Origin: Escherichia coli 042
GTDB lineage: Bacteria > Pseudomonadota > Gammaproteobacteria > Enterobacterales > Enterobacteriaceae
Strand: one strand, 5' to 3'
Assembly (NCBI RefSeq): GCF_000027125.1
Contig: NC_017626.1
DNA: 64,000 nucleotides
A program made the position numbers and the translations under genes. Positions 20,501-48,891 of the stretch are shown piece after piece (the first letter of the stretch is position 1; each line of letters starts with the position of its first letter). The notes below the pieces were generated by a model that was not told where the DNA came from, did not search any database, and saw only the letters and a list, made by a program, of their open reading frames with translations.

Positions 20501-20761
20501 AATAAGATGACCGGTAGCAAAAGCCCCGGCAAATGCCCCCGCCATGTTCAGTGCCGAAGATTTAGCTGTATTTATCTGATCCGTCACTTCTGCCAGTGCA
20601 CGCCGCATTTCACGGGATGCAGCAGCGGACTGTCGGCCTCCGTTCTGCATGGTACGGTAGTAATCCTGCCCCATACGCGAAGACCGGGAGATCTCTGACT
20701 GGAATGACCGGGAATTTGCCGAGATTTTAATAATCAGTTCACGTAATGTCGCCACACTCAT
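17528..20761 (-). CDS. H: tail tape measure protein H
   Basis: 1077-aa Ala/Gln-rich coiled-coil ORF upstream of M/L/K/I/J. Confidence 0.85.
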   Translation of the reverse strand: MSVATLRELIIKISANSRSFQSEISRSSRMGQDYYRTMQNGGRQSAAASREMRRALAEVTDQINTAKSSALNMAGAFAGAFATGHLISLADEWNSVNARLKQASQSSDDFQSSQRELMAISQRTGTAFSDNASLFARSAASMREYGYSSEEVLKVTEAISTGLKLSGASTAEASSVITQFSQALAQGVLRGEEFNSVNENGDRVIRALAAGMGVARKDLKAMADNGKLTADKVVPALISQLGALRDEYAAMPDTVSSSATKVENAFMAWVGGANEASGVTKTLSGVLNGIAGNIDTVATAAGALVAVGVARYFGNMASSAGSATAGLITAARNEVALAEAQLRGTQIATARARAAVYRAQQAVVAARGTERQAAAEAKLTAAQASLTRNIAARTAAQTTLNTVTSVGSRLLSGALGLVGGVPGLVMLGATAWYTMYQNQEQARESARQYAATIDEIRQKTSAMSLPEASDNEEKTRQALDEQNRLIDEQKSKIKSLQEKIAGYQYVLANPGWTTDNGFMINHMTSVKTVTEGLAEATNQLAVEQSRLTQMQGKAQSIQDVLAGLEERRVALIRQQAAEQNKAYQSLLIMNGQHTEFNRLLGLGNELLQQRQGLVNVPLRLPQATLDDKQQTALNNSERELALSRLKGEARERARLGYAADDLGFVGEAYQTARQNYINNSLDAWRNNQANKPKTHKKTEAEKTEDIYKRLIKQQKEQIALAGQNTELAKMKYQVSQGELSTLSEAQKKTLLQNAALIDQKKIREQLAAYESSLADSNASARASDEAQLLGYGEGSRMRERLQEMWSIRQAFEQKNNELLRQYQAGEIEEALWKQEKELNKKYLEERLSDQQDYYAKADALRNNWNAGLQEGLTNWADSATDYASQAADAVVSTMDGLVSNISDALAGNVVDWRNWGSSVLREVSKILMNAAIVNGLKSLSGAGGWLGTVGGWISGAVANAKGGVYTSANLSAYSNTIVDTPTYFAFAKGAGLMGEAGPEAIMPLTRAADGSLGVRAIGNVNGGGGFVYSPVYHISIQNQGSNGEIDARSARGLVDLIDSRVVSIMQSSRRDGGLYSA

Positions 20762-20801
20762 TCTCCGGACGAAAAAAAACCGCCGAAGCGGTTATGTTGA
20801 C

Positions 20802-21113
20802 TCACTGAGACACTATTAAAAGCGCGTTTTCCAGTCCAGCAAATGGATCTGATACGCCTTCTGTCTGCTCCTTCTCCCACTGAAGAAGCGCATCATTCAG
20901 TGGCACTTTGACCCCCTGCGCACCGTAAACAGCTGAAACAATCTGGGCAGCCCGGATATCAGCCCGTTCGTCCCCCAGCGGGCTGAACCTGTCAAATTCT
21001 GCCCACATCATGATTTCTGATGCGGACATTTCCCGGCGTAACTCTGACAATGTGCGCCCCATCCTGAGCGCCAGCATCATCAGAAAACGCATCCCCGGAA
21101 GCGCTACTTTTTT
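20802..21113 (-). CDS. T: T segment of tail assembly chaperone GT (expressed by -1 frameshift from G)
   Basis: ORF in the -1 frame relative to G, entered at the A AAA AAG slippery site at the end of G. Confidence 0.7.
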   Translation of the reverse strand, partial: KKVALPGMRFLMMLALRMGRTLSELRREMSASEIMMWAEFDRFSPLGDERADIRAAQIVSAVYGAQGVKVPLNDALLQWEKEQTEGVSDPFAGLENALLIVSQ

Positions 21114-26980: not shown

Positions 26981-27706
26981 TCACAGAATTAACAGGTCCT
27001 CATCAGGATCAAGCGTGGACAGAAAGTCATTCACGCCCCCGCCATTTACCAGAAAGCGGCTCATGGCTGTAAAAAGCGCAACAGGGCCGTCGATTTTGGC
27101 TTCCGGCGTGGATTTATTCGGGAAGATGTTGTCGTTTTTGTCCGGTTTTACAGTAACGTTAGACATCATCCAGTTCATGACCGGATGATTGCTGTGATGG
27201 AAACGCCCGGCATAAACCAGTGATTCCGTTTCCTTCATGGCCTCTGACAGATTGCGGACCGTCTGCGGAACCTCCACCAGCGGTATCCCTTCTTCAGCCA
27301 GTGCCAGACTGAACTGCATTGCGCTCCACGGGTCAAATCCCAGTTCCCTGAGGTTTTCACCGCCAATCCATTCCAGTAAGTCACTTTTTATCTGAGCATG
27401 ATCGATAACATCACCATCCGTCAGGATGAGCTTATCCATCTCCGCCCACTTCCGGTAAAGTTCTGCCTGCTGCCGCGAGCATCGTTCCAGCCGTCCTTCC
27501 GGAAGCCAGAATTTAAAATCAGCATGAACATGTCCGTTATCGGTTCGCCAGAGTTTTGCCGCCGCACAGATATCAATCTTATGAGCAAGGTCGACGCCGA
27601 CCCACATGGGATATGTTTTCAGCTCATGTTGTGGAGCAATGTATTCGCACTTCTCCCACTTAATCATATCCATCCAGGCAGATTCGGCAGTGACCCACAC
27701 ATTCAT
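26981..27706 (-). pseudogene. terminase large subunit, C-terminal fragment (gene interrupted by satellite insertion)
   Basis: 241-aa ORF is TerL nuclease-domain region; its first codons continue the reading frame of the N-terminal fragment at 42956-43983 across the insertion. Confidence 0.8.
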
Positions 27707-27710
27707 GTGT

Positions 27711-27717
27711 TTGGTAA
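27711..27717. repeat. left copy of 7-bp direct repeat TTGGTAA (att core) at satellite-prophage junction
   Basis: Identical heptamer at both junctions; joining the flanks restores a continuous terL frame (...VNFFTKHMNVWV...). Confidence 0.7.
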
Positions 27718-27792
27718 GAATATTTCAAGTTTTTTAAAATTGACTGTATATCAATCGTTTAACATGAAAAAACAGTCTTTATAAATCATCGA

Positions 27793-27813
27793 GCAATACA
27801 CAGCGCAATACAC
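27793..27813. repeat. tandem GCAATACAC repeats (putative integrase arm-type sites), left end
   Basis: Two copies here and two at 42804-42824. Confidence 0.5.
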
Positions 27814-27997
27814 GTATCTGTATTGTTTTAATGCTGATACACACCGTTTTTTGATACAGTGATTCGACCTACCATCGCGAAGCATTTTTTATTTCTTGTG
27901 TGTAACAATCTGACGAGGTGAGCACTCAAAGAGATAAGAGGCAGTAGAAATTTCGATCCCCCCTGAATGCAATTTTTCGTATATATATACAAAACAG

Positions 27998-28153
27998 TGC
28001 GGGTTATGCGGGTTAGCGGGTTATCTTCGCGTGCTAATTATCTTTTACTCTTTAATATCAATATGTTAAAAAACAACGCATTTAAATATCAGCCAGAATG
28101 TAACCCGCAAGACATTCAAAATAACCCGCAAACACCCCTCAAATAACCCGCAA
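27998..28153. repeat. iteron-like cluster: 3 direct and 3 inverted copies of TGCGGGTTAT
   Basis: Repeats read directly; same motif recurs at 36165-36291 next to the primase gene. Confidence 0.7.
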
Positions 28154-28232
28154 AAACATCCCTGAAAGTAGGTGCCGGTAATACTGAAAATTTATTCCAT
28201 TAAATGAGCATTGTCCTCTCTCATCCATTCCG

Positions 28233-29894
28233 TTACACACCATCAAACGCCGCAAGCCGCTCTTTGTGGCTGTCGCTCATATCGAATGCAAATTCCTCAT
28301 GCTCTGCCTGGAATGTGCCAAACGCCATCAGCGCCGCAACGCTCGGGTCTATCTTGTTGGATGATTTTTTCTTGTTCGGCTTGATATTGGCGTTCGCGTC
28401 ACTCTGCATCACAACATTACTCATTGACCAGGCCAGCACCGGATCACCACGATGCACAATCACCTTCCGGTTAACAAAAACTTCGAACGATTTCGCCGCC
28501 GGACTGAAACGAAGGTATGTTTGCGGGAACGGCTCCACCTCAAATCCTGCGCCCTGTAGCTGCGTCCTCAGGTGCGTGGCGTTCCATGTATCGAAGCCCA
28601 CCAGCCTGATATTGAAATTTTCTGCATCTGCCATGATGTCATCACGGATACGGTCATAATCAATGCAGTCACCCGGTGTTGTGCGTATCCAGCCCGCCTT
28701 TACCCACTGGCGATAGATGGCGCGGTTTTTATTGGCGGGGTTCTGTAGCTGAAATTCCGGCAGATAGTGACGGGAAACCAGCATAATCTTTTTACCGACC
28801 GGAAAGGCATAGCACACGCTGGAAATATCGCTGGTTGATGATAAGTCCAGCCCCGCGTAGCACTCCTGCCCGTATAAATCCGCCTCCGCGAACGTTCCGG
28901 CGCACTCCGCCCATGCACCGTTACCCATCCACGGCGTAGCCCCCTGACACCAGATATTGAATCGCTTGGTGAGCATTTCCACCCACTGCGACGGAATACC
29001 CCGCGCTTTCTGGATGGTTGAGGCCAGTTTTTCACGATCGACGGAAACATCGATATTGGGATTCGCCTTTATCCACATCGCCGGATCGTCAACCTCGCTT
29101 TCATCATCCAGCTCGTAAATCAGCACGAACATGGATTCGTTCACCTCTTCACCATCCAGTATCTGGCAGCAATAGTCGTAGTGTTGTTTACAGGCTGAAA
29201 CAACGTTGCTCCCCGATGTGGTGATGGCAAATAATAACCCCTCCGGACGCGCCCCCATTCCCAGTTCAAGCGCGGAATAAACCCCGTTGTCAGGGTGCAG
29301 GTGATATTCATCCACAATGGCAAGACTCGGGTTTGTACCTTCAATGGTTGCCGCTTTTGCTGCCAGTGGTTTTAACAGGCTGTTGGTTTTCGGGTGTATC
29401 ACCTTGTGTGCCTGAATATTTACCCGCTTTCGTAACGGTCGGGATAAAAGGCACATCTGACGCGCATCATCAAACACGATCCGCGCCTGATCACGACTCA
29501 CGGCGGCGGTGTAAATATCCTGCTGCCCGTTTTCCATAACCAGAAACCAGTTAGCCAGGATAGCGGCGACCGTGGATTTGGCATTTTTTCGCGGTACTTC
29601 AATGAATGCGCTGGTGTATTTGCGCCGCCCGGTGGCCTTAACCTTAAAGCCCAGGATGCACGCAAAGGCGAACTGCTGCCACGGCTCCAGCTCAATGGGG
29701 CTACCGCGCATTGCGCCTTTTACGTGCGGGCACACCCTGGAAAAGGCAATAAACCGCTCCACGACCTCCGGATCGAACGTGTAAAGGGGGTTTTCAAGGT
29801 CAGAAAAATACCGTTTAACGGCCTGTTTCAGTCGTTTACAGGCCGTAATTTTGCCGTTTTTTACGCCTTCTGCGTACTCATGCCAGGCGGTCAA
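28233..29894 (-). CDS. terminase large subunit (satellite-encoded)
   Basis: 553-aa complete ORF; same family as but divergent from the split prophage TerL. Confidence 0.85.
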   Translation of the reverse strand: MTAWHEYAEGVKNGKITACKRLKQAVKRYFSDLENPLYTFDPEVVERFIAFSRVCPHVKGAMRGSPIELEPWQQFAFACILGFKVKATGRRKYTSAFIEVPRKNAKSTVAAILANWFLVMENGQQDIYTAAVSRDQARIVFDDARQMCLLSRPLRKRVNIQAHKVIHPKTNSLLKPLAAKAATIEGTNPSLAIVDEYHLHPDNGVYSALELGMGARPEGLLFAITTSGSNVVSACKQHYDYCCQILDGEEVNESMFVLIYELDDESEVDDPAMWIKANPNIDVSVDREKLASTIQKARGIPSQWVEMLTKRFNIWCQGATPWMGNGAWAECAGTFAEADLYGQECYAGLDLSSTSDISSVCYAFPVGKKIMLVSRHYLPEFQLQNPANKNRAIYRQWVKAGWIRTTPGDCIDYDRIRDDIMADAENFNIRLVGFDTWNATHLRTQLQGAGFEVEPFPQTYLRFSPAAKSFEVFVNRKVIVHRGDPVLAWSMSNVVMQSDANANIKPNKKKSSNKIDPSVAALMAFGTFQAEHEEFAFDMSDSHKERLAAFDGV

Positions 29895-30234
29895 GCTCGT
29901 CCTCTTCCTCTGTTTCCGGTGGATTTCTGCGGCGGCTTACCGGGTCAAAACCCAGCAAAGAAGCCATTTTGATCATTATTCTTTCTGCGTCAGCCTTTGC
30001 GCTCAGGGCGGGGTTTCTGCTCTCACTGCCCTGACTGTTAACAATGCTGAATCCGCGCGTCGCAAGGTCTTCGACGGCTTTGCGGTATATGGAGTAGTTA
30101 ACGCAATACAGCTCCAGATTGCTCCAGTCGGCGGGGGTAAGGTCTTCCCGCCCGGAAAGCTGGCGCGATTTTTCCTTCCACTGCCTGACCGCGATTTCAT
30201 CCAGGTAAGCGGGGGCTTTTGGTGGTCTTGCCAT
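29878..30234 (-). CDS. terminase small subunit, P27 family (satellite)
   Basis: Start set at MARPPKAPAYL...; directly upstream of terL; the longer six-frame ORF start is an upstream extension. Confidence 0.75.
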   Translation of the reverse strand: MARPPKAPAYLDEIAVRQWKEKSRQLSGREDLTPADWSNLELYCVNYSIYRKAVEDLATRGFSIVNSQGSESRNPALSAKADAERIMIKMASLLGFDPVSRRRNPPETEEEDELDRLA

Positions 30235-30522
30235 GTTCTTTTTTCGCCCAATTATTTTCAAAAAAATTCCCGTGCACAAAAATTTGAGGAGGCGGTCGGT
30301 GTCCGGCAGGGACGGTTTCGTCCTGAAAACCTCCCCCACCCCCTCTGACAGCCTCACCAGCGATTGCGAAAACATTCCATGACCTCGCGGTCACGGTCGG
30401 TTAATCGCTTCGGTGTGGTGCGTTCTGTGCGCCCTGTCCTGTTGACTTTGTGCCCTGTCTCCTGTGTCTTCCATAAGTCACGCTGCCTTATCAGTCCACG
30501 TATCAGCCTGTTTTGCTCCTGT

Positions 30523-30963
30523 TCAGTCATCATCGCCATACATCCAGTCGTTACGATGTGCCGCCCGTTCTTCCTGCTCGCGATACATGCCCGCCTTACG
30601 GTTCGCTTTCGTGGCTGGATCTTCCCGTGTCGTCTTACGGTTGTGGCACGTCTGGCACAATGCCTGGTGGTTCCACTCAGGCCAGAAGAGAACATCACCG
30701 CCGCCATTGATGGGAATGATGTGATCCACCACAAGAGCTGGCGTATAAATCCCCTTAGCCAGACAACGCACGCATAACGGGTTTTTGCTCAGGTACAGGG
30801 CGCGGTATTTGTCCCACTGCCGGGAATACCCACGCGCGCGGCGGTGCCCCCGTCTGGCATCCTCTGCACGCCATGCAGCCCGCCTGTGCTCTTCACACTT
30901 GCCGGACTTCACGCGCTTATTACAGCCCGGCTCAGTGCATCGCCTTAATGGTTGCCACGGCAT
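30523..30963 (-). CDS. HNH endonuclease (packaging-associated)
   Basis: 146-aa ORF with Cys/His HNH motifs, upstream of terS. Confidence 0.8.
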   Translation of the reverse strand: MPWQPLRRCTEPGCNKRVKSGKCEEHRRAAWRAEDARRGHRRARGYSRQWDKYRALYLSKNPLCVRCLAKGIYTPALVVDHIIPINGGGDVLFWPEWNHQALCQTCHNRKTTREDPATKANRKAGMYREQEERAAHRNDWMYGDDD

Positions 30964-31262
30964 CAGTACACCCCCACATCACGATAAACCGACCAGAGCG
31001 CAGAAATAGCCATAGGCAGTTCAGACTGTTCCACAGGTGAAACCGCTTCCCTGTTCTCGTACAGGAAAGCGATGTACATCAGGCAACCAACACGTATTGC
31101 CGGGGTAAATTCCAGCCCGTCTTCAAAACGTTTCCCGATATGCTTCTGGCAGGCTTCCAGCGCCGCATCGGTATACATTTTCAGAAGTTCGCCTTCTCCG
31201 GAAAAGTCATCAAGGCGAAGATGTGCCCTGACTTCATCAGGTGTAATTTTGTCTTCACTCAT
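30963..31262 (-). CDS. head-tail connector (gp6-like) protein (satellite)
   Basis: Start set at MSEDKITPDEVR... to limit overlap with the portal gene. Confidence 0.55.
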   Translation of the reverse strand: MSEDKITPDEVRAHLRLDDFSGEGELLKMYTDAALEACQKHIGKRFEDGLEFTPAIRVGCLMYIAFLYENREAVSPVEQSELPMAISALWSVYRDVGVY

Positions 31263-32469
31263 CTTTTTCACCTTTAATTTCCACAGTCTGCTTCCATGCC
31301 TGGCTGAACTCGTCGCCACCTTCACGCGGCGGCATTCCCTCACGCTCACGGGCTTCGTTCGGATTCATGATCCCGTTCTTAATCCCTTTCTCATACGTGG
31401 CGTAACGTTCGGTAGGGGTGGCGCGCAGTAAATCGGCTGAATCAAACTCAACCAGATAACGGGTACCAGGTACGGGAGAAGCCACCAGCAAAGCGGCCTT
31501 GATTTGCTGTTCGAAGTTCGCCAGCCACGGACGCATTGTCATAGTCAGAAACGCGCGGCTTGCCTCACTGAAATTGCTGTAGGTGCTGTTGCTGTATTCC
31601 TGAAGAAAAATCGGCGACACGTTGAACATACGGGCAATGTCTTCAATGGAGAAGCGACGGGAGGCCAGCCATTCAGCATCCTGGTTACTCATTCCCAGTT
31701 GCTTGTAATCCATGCCCCCTTCAAGGATTGGCGTTTTTCCGGCATTTTTCGCCCCCTTGTAGCGTTCCAGTGCGTCTAATGCCTGTTTACCTTTCACGCC
31801 GTCCAGCCATTCGCCTGACGTGATAATCCCTGCCGCCATCATGCCATCTTTCATAATGCTGGCTCCGTGGCGCTGTTGAGCAAGGCCAAGCCCCAGCGCC
31901 TCACGGCAAATCGTGACAGGGGAGCGCCCCAGAAAGCCATCATCCGAGGCATAGCGGAGATGCAGAACTTCTTCCTGTAAATACGTGCGCACCGTTCCTG
32001 TACAGGGTTCGGTGATGGTATAGCGGTATTTGTGTGCGCCTGTGCGTTCCGGTACAACACACCCCGGCGCATAAGGATGAAGTGATTTTGGCTGCCCGTC
32101 CTGCCCCCACTCAATAACCGCATAGGCGTTACCGTTCAGCAGACAGTGACGCATCATTGTGCGTTTAAACTGGTAAGGTGTCTGGCACGAATTAGGCTGC
32201 TCATTCAGCAGAATATCTACCGGATGACTGTCCAGCCATTCCCGCGCCTCCCTGCCCTTGTCATTACGTACCAGATACAGATAACACGGCATCGTGGCCA
32301 CCGCCTCAGCGATGACAGAAACCGCGTTCATCACAGCAGGCAATGATTCAGCCGTCCCGGCAGAAACATATTCTCCGGATCCGGTATTCGGTACGCCGGA
32401 CAGCGCCAGAAAATCATCAATGGACAGGTTACGTTGCTCGCTTTTTTTACGACTAAAAGGCCACCACAT
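31255..32469 (-). CDS. portal protein, HK97 family (satellite)
   Basis: Start set at internal Met (MWWPFSRKK...) just after the protease stop. Confidence 0.8.
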   Translation of the reverse strand: MWWPFSRKKSEQRNLSIDDFLALSGVPNTGSGEYVSAGTAESLPAVMNAVSVIAEAVATMPCYLYLVRNDKGREAREWLDSHPVDILLNEQPNSCQTPYQFKRTMMRHCLLNGNAYAVIEWGQDGQPKSLHPYAPGCVVPERTGAHKYRYTITEPCTGTVRTYLQEEVLHLRYASDDGFLGRSPVTICREALGLGLAQQRHGASIMKDGMMAAGIITSGEWLDGVKGKQALDALERYKGAKNAGKTPILEGGMDYKQLGMSNQDAEWLASRRFSIEDIARMFNVSPIFLQEYSNSTYSNFSEASRAFLTMTMRPWLANFEQQIKAALLVASPVPGTRYLVEFDSADLLRATPTERYATYEKGIKNGIMNPNEAREREGMPPREGGDEFSQAWKQTVEIKGEKDE

Positions 32470-32470
32470 A

Positions 32471-33031
32471 TCACAACCCCGCCAGTTCAGCCCAGCGATG
32501 ACGATTATTTCCTGCCGGGCGTAATTCAGGGTGCTGTGCAAACAACGAACGGTGGGCAATCTCCACGCCAGATTCTGGATAAGCAGGCATCGACGTTATT
32601 GTGATTTCTCGGAGTTCAGCGGCGGTTACGGTACGCAAATACGGTTTTTGCGCGATATTCCATTCTTCGCATAATGCGCGAAAGCCAAAGCTCATTCCTG
32701 TAATGTCGCCACGCGACACCAGCGTGAGCACATCTTTTCCAAGCTGGGTATCAGGCGGTGTCAGTTCAAAACGTAGCCCGGTGTTGTCCCCAGTCAGTAC
32801 CAGAGTGCCGGATTTGGTGCGCCCCAGCAGTTGGGTATAGTCATGCTCATACAGGCAGCGCACATCATTACCCGCCGCCAGATAGTCAGCAAAAGCCCCC
32901 GGCGTGAACTGTTCGCGGAATTCGTCCCAGATAATTTCTGAAAGGCTGTTCCAGCGAACGGCATACCCCACCAGCTTTTTATTGCTGGCGGTCAGTTCAG
33001 ATGTGCGGATTTCAAAATCGGTGTTTTTCAT
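32471..33031 (-). CDS. prohead protease, HK97 S78 family (satellite)
   Basis: 186-aa ORF with conserved protease motifs. Confidence 0.8.
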   Translation of the reverse strand: MKNTDFEIRTSELTASNKKLVGYAVRWNSLSEIIWDEFREQFTPGAFADYLAAGNDVRCLYEHDYTQLLGRTKSGTLVLTGDNTGLRFELTPPDTQLGKDVLTLVSRGDITGMSFGFRALCEEWNIAQKPYLRTVTAAELREITITSMPAYPESGVEIAHRSLFAQHPELRPAGNNRHRWAELAGL

Positions 33032-33085
33032 CGGTGTACTCCATAAAGCTGAAAAAGGAGGCCGCAGCCTCCTCCTTACTCATGA

Positions 33086-41582: not shown

Positions 41583-42783
41583 TACTGTCACCACTAATTT
41601 GCTTATTCAGATAGTCGTACCACCAGTTCATAGCTTCTTTTTTTCTGTCCATATACTGGCTTCTGTTATAAACCCCGGCAACACCGCCTAATGTGTGCCC
41701 AAGCAACTGTTCAACCACATTATGTTCAAAACCATGATCACTTAGTTTTGTGGCAAACACTCTTCGCATATCATGCGCCGTCCATTTCTCCGAGTGTTTC
41801 ATCCTTTTCCATGTCTTACCGATAGTTACGCTTGCCGTACACTGACGCATATCAAACCCAATCACATTTTCTTTGTTACCTGTTATTTTTTTTAACGTAA
41901 CTAACCAGTTAAACATGCCATCAGGAATCGGTCTGATTATTTCCCTGCCATTTTTGCTATGATCAGCGGGAACGCGCCATAATTTCTTATCAAAATCCCA
42001 CTCTACCCAGGACGACAGTAATACTTCTGACAGTCGACAACCAAAAACTACCAGGAAACGTAAAATAATTCGGTTTTCATATGATAATTCGTGATTGTCA
42101 TAATCAGTATTAATACTTCGCCATAAATCTCTGATTTCATCATCTGTTAAAACCCTGCTTCTTCGCGCAGACTTTTTTCCCACATCACAGACCTCAAGAT
42201 CATCAATTTCATGACTAATCGCGTATTTTCTTACCCTACAAAATTTAAGCGCCTGTTTTGATATACGCAACAAAGCTCCGGCCTGTACAGGTGCTACTTT
42301 TTTTATTTTGTCAAAACACTTAATCCACATAGATATAGAGCAATCACTAAGTGGTACATGACCAATCACCGGATAAATATGTTTACCAAAGCACTGCCTG
42401 ATATGTTCTGCTCCCCTACGCTTATCCATTGCATAATTATCAAGCCAGTATTCAAGTGCCTCACGAACGGTAACAGGTTGCAAGGTGGCTTCCCGTTCAA
42501 TTTTTATCTGAATCCGTGGATCTCTGCCCTCCGCAAGCCAAGTTCGACACTGATCGCGCATCTCTCTCGCTGATTTGAGACTCAGATCAGGATATTTTCC
42601 AAGTGTCAGCCAGATGGGCGCGGTTTCCCTTCCCGCCAGTCTGTAAAAGAAAACAAAACTAACACATCCGTATTTACTGACCCGTACCGAAAGCCCGTTA
42701 CCATCAGCGATGGTTTCCTGCCTCTCACTCCTGCGTCCAAGCAGGGAACGAAGTTTTTTATCGCTCAGTTTGTTTAGCGCCAT
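41560..42783 (-). CDS. tyrosine integrase (P4-like)
   Basis: 407-aa segment beginning MALNKLSDKKLRSL...; catalytic region HDMRR...LLGH...VY; upstream part of the 807-aa ORF is read-through from terL. Confidence 0.85.
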   Translation of the reverse strand: MALNKLSDKKLRSLLGRRSERQETIADGNGLSVRVSKYGCVSFVFFYRLAGRETAPIWLTLGKYPDLSLKSAREMRDQCRTWLAEGRDPRIQIKIEREATLQPVTVREALEYWLDNYAMDKRRGAEHIRQCFGKHIYPVIGHVPLSDCSISMWIKCFDKIKKVAPVQAGALLRISKQALKFCRVRKYAISHEIDDLEVCDVGKKSARRSRVLTDDEIRDLWRSINTDYDNHELSYENRIILRFLVVFGCRLSEVLLSSWVEWDFDKKLWRVPADHSKNGREIIRPIPDGMFNWLVTLKKITGNKENVIGFDMRQCTASVTIGKTWKRMKHSEKWTAHDMRRVFATKLSDHGFEHNVVEQLLGHTLGGVAGVYNRSQYMDRKKEAMNWWYDYLNKQISGDSNDSNSYA

Positions 42784-42803
42784 GTGATTTATAACCCGTT
42801 TTT

Positions 42804-42824
42804 GCAATACACAGTGCAATACAC
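42804..42824. repeat. tandem GCAATACAC repeats (putative integrase arm-type sites), right end
   Basis: Same 9-mer pair as at 27793-27813, same orientation. Confidence 0.5.
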
Positions 42825-42955
42825 AAATGATGAAAACAGCCAGAACCTTCCAGAAAAAACAAAAACGACGAACAAGAAAAAAATCTTTTTCTTTCATTTG
42901 GTTACTAAAAAAATCAGGACAGGTCGCACTGTTGTTACGGCGTGATGTTACTTTC

Positions 42956-42962
42956 TTGGTAA
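42956..42962. repeat. right copy of 7-bp direct repeat TTGGTAA (att core)
   Basis: See left copy. Confidence 0.7.
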
Positions 42963-43983
42963 AAAAATTCACCCGCGCAGAGACCTGCTCCTTCGCTTTT
43001 TTCGCCAGACGACGCAGATCATCCCAGCGTTTACAGATGCCCAGGCCAGGATTCGCTTTCTGCCAGACCGTTTCATCAAACGGATCATCTCCCTCATCGA
43101 GCGTGTAAATGATCGCAAAGTAAGAGTCGTCTTTTACAGCGCCCTCCACGTCGCTGTTATAGCCTCGCAATACCTTGATGGCGTAATCACGCTGCTCGTA
43201 ACAAATCCCTTCCTTGTTAAAGCCAGCCGTGGTGATACCAAATAACAAGGACTGCAGACGGGCACCGGTTGCCGTTTCCAGAACGTCCCACACGTCGCGG
43301 GTTTTATGTGCATGCAGCTCATCAATAATGGCGCAGTGGATGTTCAGACCGTCCAGGTTGTTTGCATCCGAGGAAAGCGGTTCAAATTTTGATGCGCTCT
43401 GCTCCTGGTAAATCGCCAGCTTGTTGAAATCAAACAACCGCCCGAGTGTCGACCGGGCTTTTCTGACCATATTTTTGGCGTCTTCAAACACGATTCTGGC
43501 CTGGTCACGCGTGGTTGCGGCTGAATACACCTCAGCTCCGCCTTCACTATCTGCCCCCGTCATATACAGGCCGATACCCGATGACAGGGTTGATTTTGCG
43601 TTTTTACGGGCGACTTCGTTGTACGCCGTCCGGAACCGGCGCACCATCACCGGACGTCCGCTGCCATCGCTGCGCATGACAACTTCCCCGGTTTCTTCAT
43701 TGACCAGCGGAATGACAAAACCAAAAATATTAATGAGGATAAATACATGCCAGTCCATCAACTCAATGGGCTGGCCTGCCAGTGCCCCTTTTACATGAGG
43801 CACAAATTTGTAGAAATTCAGGATGTGCTGCGCACGGGGTTCACTGAAATAAATCCCCCGCTTTTCGCCGTACTTCAGATCATCAAGAAAACGCTGGCAG
43901 GCCAGGCGGACAAATTCGCCAGCAACAATTTCTCCTGCAACAACACGTTCGGCGTAGCGGATCCCGTCAGCCACTTTTGCCAT
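42956..43983 (-). pseudogene. terminase large subunit, N-terminal fragment (interrupted by satellite insertion)
   Basis: First 340-345 residues of the 807-aa ORF are TerL ATPase-domain sequence; the frame then runs through satellite DNA into the integrase. Confidence 0.8.
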
Positions 43984-48636: not shown

Positions 48637-48713
48637 TATGGCGCGCTGTACTGGATTCGAACCAGTGACCGATTGCTTAGAAGGCAATTGCTCTGTCCGG
48701 CTGAGCTAACAAC
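48637..48713 (-). tRNA. tRNA-Arg (anticodon UCU)
   Basis: Manually folded cloverleaf: acceptor GCGTTGT/ACAGCGC, anticodon stem ATTGC/GCAAT, loop CTTCTAA, T-loop GGTTCGAATCC, encoded CCA. Confidence 0.8.
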
Positions 48714-48815
48714 GCTGAATACCGATAATGGACCGCCATCGGGGACCCGCCCCCGCACCAACAACCCTGTTATCGTGTCGTCTGCTCTTCCTGATAAGCT
48801 AATGGCGGTTTGTGA

Positions 48816-48891
48816 TGGTGGCCCTTGCTGGATTTGAACCAGCGACCTGGCGATTATGAGTCGCTCGCTCTCACCACTGAGCTAAAGGGCC
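48816..48891 (-). tRNA. tRNA with CAU anticodon (Ile2/Met type)
   Basis: Acceptor GGCCCTT/AAGGGCC, anticodon loop CTCATAA, T-loop GGTTCAAATCC, encoded CCA. Confidence 0.8.

Follow-up and report, generated by a model that had tools for sequence, protein, structure and literature searches.

The cluster of repeats at the left end of a phage satellite in Escherichia coli 042 is almost certainly one half of a phage-satellite replication origin. Judged by its homology, it is the second unit (hereafter half II) of a composite origin, moved to the far end of the element, while the first unit (half I) lies directly 3′ of the rep gene. An 8-kb block extending from the SSB gene to terL separates the two halves. 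Half II is probably a complete origin unit of an iteron-type PICI origin, which would be recognised by the satellite's own DUF927 initiator-helicase (Rep) and would serve in cis as a second Rep-loading unit. Descriptions of PICI and SaPI origins give a single compact block directly downstream of rep. In the present case this block is made up of two complete units, and a widespread lineage of E. coli has them working, or at least retained, 8-11 kb apart. In the accessible parts of the PICI literature, a single origin is given, downstream of rep or pri, and a split origin was not found described. The split arrangement is a layout, not found in that literature, of a known type of PICI origin.

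The window, that is the whole stretch of 64,000 nucleotides that was analysed, contains the satellite as a 15.2-kb insert (27711-42969) with every gene on the - strand. Alignment to phage Evi indicates that the terL gene of an HK97-like prophage is broken between 27724 and 42956, with duplication of a 14-bp core. The satellite encodes, in this order, an integrase, an alpA-like regulator, Bro-N, a 706-aa DUF927 Rep, SSB, PerC, a major capsid protein (MCP), a protease, a portal protein, HNH, TerS of the P27 family and TerL. It thus combines int, an alpA-like gene and rep/ori with its own MCP, protease, portal, HNH, TerS and TerL genes in about 15 kb, co-oriented within a prophage late gene. From this gene set and from the insertion in prophage terL, it follows that the host element is a capsid-forming, helper-embedded PICI. 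The prototype of the capsid-forming class is EcCIEDL933 (Alqurainy et al., bioRxiv 10.1101/2022.09.08.507074), and the helper-embedded configuration is that of Tommasini, Mageeney and Williams (2023, PMC10111431). Relatives of the satellite TerL are present in 525 IMG/VR stretches.

The left cluster (27998-28152) is made of six exact copies of the 8-bp core GCGGGTTA, with a spacing of 8-9 bp between the three + strand copies (Table 1). The longer 10-mer TGCGGGTTAT matches three of the six copies exactly and the three others with one mismatch. This 10-mer is found 8 times in the window where 0.14 occurrences are expected, and none of 100 shuffles reached 8 or more; the core itself is found 17 times against 1.5 expected. 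The first-pass annotation had described three direct and three inverted copies in an AT-rich non-coding region by the 3′ end of terL, as well as a second cluster about 8 kb away beside the primase gene. Both descriptions hold. The six exact cores lie in a non-coding region of 508 bp (27725-28232; 36.6% GC vs 49% for the window), between the terL stop codon (28233) and the att core, from which the cluster is 275-430 bp distant. Six further copies directly follow rep. The repeat had also been suspected to be limited to these two loci and, within the satellite, this is the case: its 12 core copies are all inside the two clusters, and the remaining 5 copies of the window are singletons in the surrounding prophage. 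Two short ORFs cover the left region (27828..27992 on the - strand and 27967..28146 on the + strand). They are not credible as genes because relatives differ there by 1-nt indels and because conservation tracks the repeats instead of codons. A search for Rfam families over 27000-43500 gave none at E <= 1, and a promoter and terminator search gave no terminator-like site and a single weak promoter-like match, located at the att core, outside the cluster. A small RNA, a promoter or a terminator was discarded on these grounds as a reading of the left cluster.

Table 1. Features of the satellite that bear on its replication origin. Positions are those of the window.
Feature	Position	Strand	Remarks
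att core, left copy	27711..27724		Junction of satellite and prophage terL; 14-bp overlap of two phage Evi alignments
GCAATACAC tandem pair, left arm; candidate integrase arm-type sites	27793..27813		Matching pair at 42804-42824, between core and int
Block of ~90-110 bp distal to the cassette	27880..27969		Kept in far-end copies from three satellite architectures; absent as a conserved block from composite origins
CAATTTTTCG(TA)5CAAAACAG block adjoining packed iterons; candidate DNA-unwinding element	27970..27997		Invariant bar TA copy number; identical in the L087 composite origin
Half II, three packed iterons: TGCGGGTTAT GCGGGTTA GCGGGTTAT; starts 27998, 28007, 28015	27998..28024	+	27-mer invariant in 39 IMG/VR contigs and nearly so in 26 far-end variants
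Half II, AT-rich spacer; 75 bp, 28% GC	28025..28099		Contains the start (28034) of the region's least stable 25-mer
IHF consensus TATCAATATGTTA, here WATCAANNNNTTR, within half II spacer	28056..28068	+	Perfect match, consensus TATCAANNNNTTR; predicted site
Half II, three phased iterons; starts 28100, 28121, 28143	28100..28152	-	Steps of 21-22 bp, two helical turns
Satellite terL, final gene before half II	28233..29894	-	
Satellite SSB gene, first one past half I	35677..36102	-	
Half I: four phased iterons (36166, 36187, 36208, 36219; +), 43-bp AT-rich spacer, two packed iterons (36272, 36281; -)	36166..36290		Directly 3′ of rep ORF
rep C-terminal ~85 codons; putative winged-helix iteron-binding domain	36316..36576	-	Segment switches with iteron sequence among relatives; winged helix by analogy to SaPI Reps (PMC9371898)
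rep: 706-aa DUF927 initiator-helicase; PHROGs label 'primase'	36313..38433	-	Pfam DUF927 E 3e-46; phrog_1139; homologous to SaPI Rep 8TCH and SCCmec Cch 5DGK
att core, right copy	42956..42969		From phage Evi alignments

The two clusters are mirror images of each other. Following the direction of transcription, one meets phased iterons, AT spacer and packed iterons in the left cluster, and packed iterons, AT spacer and phased iterons in the rep-proximal cluster. The published definition of SaPI and PICI origins is that of at least two opposed iterons on either side of an AT-rich region (PMC9371898, PMC6092414). Half II has three iterons on the + strand and three on the - strand around its spacer, and half I has four and two, respectively, around a spacer of 30% GC. 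By the SaPI definition, each unit has therefore the sequence of a complete origin. Besides the spacer itself, one of the three next-least-stable 25-mers of the left region starts at 27971, within the (TA)5 block. Half I occupies the canonical place of PICI origins, immediately 3′ of rep (PMC6092414). Half II is 8.1 kb from rep instead of immediately 3′ of it, but its homologue sits canonically in the PICI L087 and in EcCIEDL933-type elements. As a side observation, a perfect DnaA box (TGTGGATAA) is present about 45-55 bp 3′ of rep in L122-L124, inside the AT-rich spacer of their half I variant; the window variant has none.

The link between the repeats and the Rep protein comes from comparative data. 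SaPI Reps use a C-terminal winged-helix domain to bind 6-12 iterons, opposed around an AT-rich centre (PMC9371898). The window Rep is homologous to such a protein (8TCH, E 4.5e-14) and has the features of a self-loading helicase with a C-terminal DNA-binding domain, in which the C-terminal segment covaries with the iteron. Indeed, in 80 homologues of the window Rep, iterons are always found directly 3′ of rep and their sequence (GCGGGTTA, GTGGGTTA, GGGACAAC, GAACCAAC or TGGGATAA) switches with the C-terminal ~70 aa of the protein: GCGGGTTA and GTGGGTTA pair with one C-terminal type, and GGGACAAC, TGGGATAA and GAACCAAC with others. The Rep of L139 illustrates this rule, as it is 89% identical over residues 1-672, yet has another C-terminus and another iteron. 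Sibling satellites with the same packaging genes but with a RepA-type or P4-alpha-like Rep have still other iterons in the corresponding place, AAAGTGGGG, CTGTTCACC, CCCTCTACC and GGTAGACA. Because the iteron changes both with the Rep C-terminus and with the Rep type, GCGGGTTA is, as far as covariation of sequences can tell, the cognate iteron of the window's DUF927 Rep, which would bind it. The replication reading proposed in the first-pass annotation is thus largely borne out, the repeats being iterons of the Rep encoded 8 kb away and the left cluster being derived from an origin and under selection (see below). The three unrelated Rep types (DUF927, RepA-helicase and P4-alpha-like) share just an N-terminal domain of about 130 aa (phrog_2850; 63% and 39% identity), encoded at 38040-38433 in the window, at 29800-30210 in L001 and at 11190-11680 in L193. 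Iteron binding through this common domain is unlikely, considering that the iteron follows the C-terminus and that many satellites have the domain without the cassette.

The identity of the left cluster as a displaced unit is given by comparison with about 200 related loci (designated by L numbers). In L087, a classical PICI, and in the EcCIEDL933-type capsid-forming PICI of O157:H7 (L196, L201), the two units directly adjoin each other 3′ of rep and together count 11-12 iterons in about 320-350 bp. This composite origin is mirror-symmetric. Over 149 bp, half I of the window shows 96% identity with the first, rep-proximal part of the L087 origin. Another part of that origin, beginning 55 bp farther along, aligns ungapped with half II over 164 bp at 83% identity, and the final 70 bp of this match, GATAACCCGCTAACCCGCATAACCCGCACTGTTTTG(TA)5CGAAAAATTG, are the same in both. 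Because of this homology, the left cluster is regarded as the displaced second origin unit. The idea that it would be an inverted duplicate of the origin is superseded by the composite origin of L087. Compared with known SaPI and PICI origins (PMC9371898), the window origin shares the Rep family (DUF927), the opposed iterons round an AT-rich spacer and an iteron specific to the Rep C-terminal domain. It differs in that it is made of two units, the second one being located past the packaging genes, at the other end of the element and 8.1 kb away from rep. In the accessible part of the study of helper-embedded PICIs (PMC10111431), an origin is mentioned solely in the position downstream of pri, and no second iteron cluster was found there.

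The split layout is not restricted to the window. With half I joined to half II as a query, matches were obtained in 298 of 5426 complete E. coli genomes, with contiguous halves in 128. Of 60 records sampled at even spacing, about 28 were composite, about 24 had the halves in two separate places and 8 had half II only; no case of half I alone was left in this sample, the lone candidate (H109) having proved composite. Hence, half II was found in all the examined complete E. coli genomes having half I, whether next to it or 8-11 kb off, at the far end. The bipartite arrangement, for which a search in related satellites had been suggested, was confirmed at the sequence level in five records, in each of which half I adjoins a DUF927 rep and the element has half II at its far end. 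In these five cases the halves are 7.9-10.9 kb apart and have a constant relative orientation, although the elements occupy three integration sites (prophage terL, gcd-hpt and next to dinD) and have two architectures (capsid-forming PICI and an element with three large unknown proteins). Three further split records agree on coordinates alone. Some loci deserve comment. L136-L138 look as if they had half I only, but their type of element carries half II 10.5-11 kb downstream, past the retrieved flank. The IMG/VR contigs L122-L124 and L142 also show half I only, which counts against the explanation preferred here, though contigs may be incomplete; in complete genomes, the L122-type variant of half I goes together with a half II at the far end.

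A distant second site is not a general feature of these replication modules. No second cluster of own iterons was found in the other DUF927 lineages, nor in the RepA, Rep8 or P4-alpha-like types, which have one contiguous cluster each. A second site for every Rep type, on the model of the P4 crr site, was therefore dismissed. Since other lineages of the same Rep family, RepA and Rep8 manage with one cluster, a distant second site is not a general requirement. Mimicry of a helper-phage origin was likewise rejected, as no phage record has the Rep or the cassette, the sole matches being satellite fragments filed as phages.

Half II is also found in elements where its cognate Rep is missing. Intact orphan copies of half II are present at the far end of at least nine satellites whose Rep is non-cognate. 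They include RepA types (L001, L003, L011, L031, L043) and P4-alpha-like types (L035/L037, L046, L052 and the cspD-clpS PICI L193/L195), and in several of these genomes no other GCGGGTTA origin is present. Such orphans weigh against the explanation of half II as an origin unit. Their formation can be traced, however. The breakpoints of homology between the window and L001 are at 36135 and 38393, so that the swapped segment contains rep and half I only. Sequence comparison thus shows how orphans are created, by exchange of rep together with half I, in a recombination aided by the N-terminal ~130-aa domain common to the three Rep types. This domain may be the site of recombination for swaps of rep and origin modules. 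The orphan cassettes are mostly 96-100% identical to the cassette linked to a cognate Rep, that of L011 being identical to that of L010, and because of this identity they appear to have been left behind by recent swaps. The L037 orphan is about 89% identical to the nearest sampled cognate-linked cassette and is fully intact. One may imagine the far-end unit as a portable, self-sufficient origin fired by Rep in trans: satellites with a swapped replication module would keep it in order to be replicated also by the DUF927 Reps of co-infecting or co-resident satellites. We give little credence to this idea. If true, it would mean that satellites share origins or parasitize each other, and the unit, always located at the edge of the variable 'late zone', would indicate the point where blocks of late genes are captured.

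Persistence of the orphans with non-cognate Reps, together with their high identity to cognate-linked cassettes, could also be taken to mean that half II is a non-functional relic, a fragment displaced from an ancestral composite origin and kept because it is linked to terL and att. The pattern of conservation speaks against this. The far-end cassette is a discrete block, located 81 to ~1260 bp after terL in lineages that are 82-90% identical. In 26 unique far-end variants (82-100% identical), 4 of 48 iteron columns vary, as compared with 113 of 197 other columns (Fisher p = 1.5e-10), and variation affects 1 of the 9 columns of the IHF consensus. When composite origins are included, the IHF consensus positions are kept in 32 of 32 unique cassette variants, although the N4 positions vary and 11 distinct 13-mers occur. 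The (TA)5-7 block beside the packed iterons is invariant in all variants except for its copy number. The iterons and IHF consensus of far-end copies are thus, from these alignments, under purifying selection. They are strongly conserved across lineages just 82% identical, and at 15% divergence a neutral set of 48 bases would seldom stay intact. Moreover, half II accompanies half I in every genome checked. We consider it improbable, for these reasons, that the cluster is a mere relic. As the halves co-occur constantly and selection is purifying, a real function of half II is supported, whose sign may be positive or negative.

A positive role would be the following. After induction, Rep hexamers would bind both units through their C-terminal winged-helix domain, and IHF would bend the AT-rich spacer of half II. 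The duplex would open in this spacer or in the (TA)5 block next to it, and loading of the self-loading helicase would take place at the opened site. Through these steps half II would act in cis, whether as an additional site of initiation or by forming a loop with half I, and would be the functional equivalent of the P4 crr site. Indirect support for a role in cis comes from the presence of half II in all the checked genomes that have half I. A negative role may also be considered, in which half II would be a Rep-titrating or handcuffing array of iterons, comparable to P1 incA or to the extra iterons of plasmids. It would bind Rep without initiating and restrain replication, for instance by blocking in situ firing from leaky Rep while the satellite is integrated. 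The finding of the origin's own iterons, under selection, outside the rep-proximal origin is in line with this proposal, and sequence alone cannot tell positive from negative action. However, the unit has all the features of an initiating origin (opposed iterons, AT-rich spacer, IHF site and (TA)5 block) and it is homologous to an integral part of the contiguous origins of relatives. In addition, the satellite requires burst replication on induction, so that negative control would be of less obvious value. Titration is accordingly held to be unlikely, and a second Rep-loading unit is preferred.

The first-pass annotation had offered a packaging site as an alternative. The cluster could be taken for cos or for TerS binding sites used by the terminase of the satellite, given its location in a non-coding region adjoining terL and its repeated sites, typical of cosB. 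A cos or pac site would be present wherever the same terminase packages. Yet the cluster is missing, and a small ORF is present in its stead, in at least 15 satellites whose TerL is 99-100% identical and whose HNH-terS region is 97-99% identical. Conversely, the same sequence is beside rep, far from terL, in L087-type PICIs without terminase genes. A cos site of the HK97 type would in any case be expected to lie between HNH and terS. As the cluster is missing from satellites that share the terminase, the packaging alternative was abandoned, the probability left to it being very small. The proximity to the att core raised still another alternative, that of arm-type sites of attP for the integrase or the excisionase. 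Here again, the distribution is not the expected one. Only one of the two arms has the GCGGGTTA repeat. The cassette is associated with at least four different integration sites and integrases, and it is also found beside rep, far from att. A different repeat, GCAATACAC, is paired on both arms, 70-150 bp from the core, and these pairs are, from their arrangement, the likely arm-type sites of the integrase. Hence, assigning the left cluster to such sites is hardly credible.

The preferred reading of half II as a second origin unit invites comparison with phage P4. The crr site of P4 consists of two direct repeats of 120 bp and is needed in cis; the alpha protein binds to crr as well as to ori. 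In P4, two clusters of the iteron TGTTCACC are 4.5 kb apart; in the window, two clusters of one iteron are 8.1 kb apart. In both cases, one cluster is near the att core: crr in P4, about 200 bp from attP, and half II in the window, at 275 bp. The likeness to P4 ori and crr put forward in the first-pass annotation is therefore valid for the layout, two separated clusters of one iteron, but not for homology. Indeed, the window Rep is not homologous to P4 alpha (best BLASTP E 0.011 over 54 aa), and the window cassette is a single unit of about 230 bp without the two 120-bp direct repeats, as seen from the sequence and the alignment of variants. Besides, it is crr, and not ori, that lies 3′ of the rep gene (alpha) in P4. 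Sibling satellites encoding an alpha homologue (41% identity to alpha) have, unlike P4, one cluster only. In L019, L022, L028 and others, 8-9 copies of CTGTTCAC(C), the same as the type I iteron TGTTCACC of P4 (L197), are grouped in one cluster 3′ of a Rep of about 600 aa, with no crr-like second site.

Another comparison, in gene content, is with EcCIEDL933. It has int, an alpA-like gene, DUF4222, DUF927 rep, SSB, PerC, MCP, protease, portal, HNH, TerS-P27 and TerL in the same order as the window satellite, as well as the GCGGGTTA iteron and the same sequence type of the Rep C-terminus. It differs by its contiguous halves (11 iterons in 315 bp) and by another repeat family at the far end, where the window satellite, embedded in prophage terL, has half II. 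In L196, of the EcCIEDL933 type, four repeats of ~17 bp (GCGGTAACTKRYTGAKA), 100-140 bp apart, are found at 20583-20980, downstream of a small post-terL ORF; they are absent from the window. Absence of the cluster from close relatives that still replicate had been named beforehand as an argument against a replication role. EcCIEDL933-type elements do lack it at their far end, but they carry the same sequence contiguous with the rep-proximal cluster, so that this absence changes the interpretation of the claim without refuting it.

These data have several consequences. The window and its relatives offer a natural split-origin system for the recruitment of a self-loading Rep helicase, in which one unit may be enough or two may cooperate by DNA looping, and the contiguous and split forms of the same origin provide a ready-made comparison. 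Exchange of modules made of rep and half I leaves orphan origin units behind. Prediction of origins in satellites should look past the first iteron cluster. Finally, engineered PICI vectors using the window's Rep may need both units.

Some minor observations concern the satellite and its surroundings. An ORF of 807 aa (41560-43983, - strand) joins the N-terminal fragment of the prophage terL to the satellite integrase, the reading frame being kept across the att core. This fusion is probably a chance event because the terL fragment of the related locus L001 ends after 397 aa. The 'Bro zone' of the satellite (39165-40238, about 1 kb) is probably non-coding or degenerate; its sole ORF is an implausible TTG ORF of 357 aa, and it has no Rfam match. 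In the surrounding prophage, genes for tRNA-Arg(TCT) and tRNA-Met are located at 48639-48891 on the - strand.
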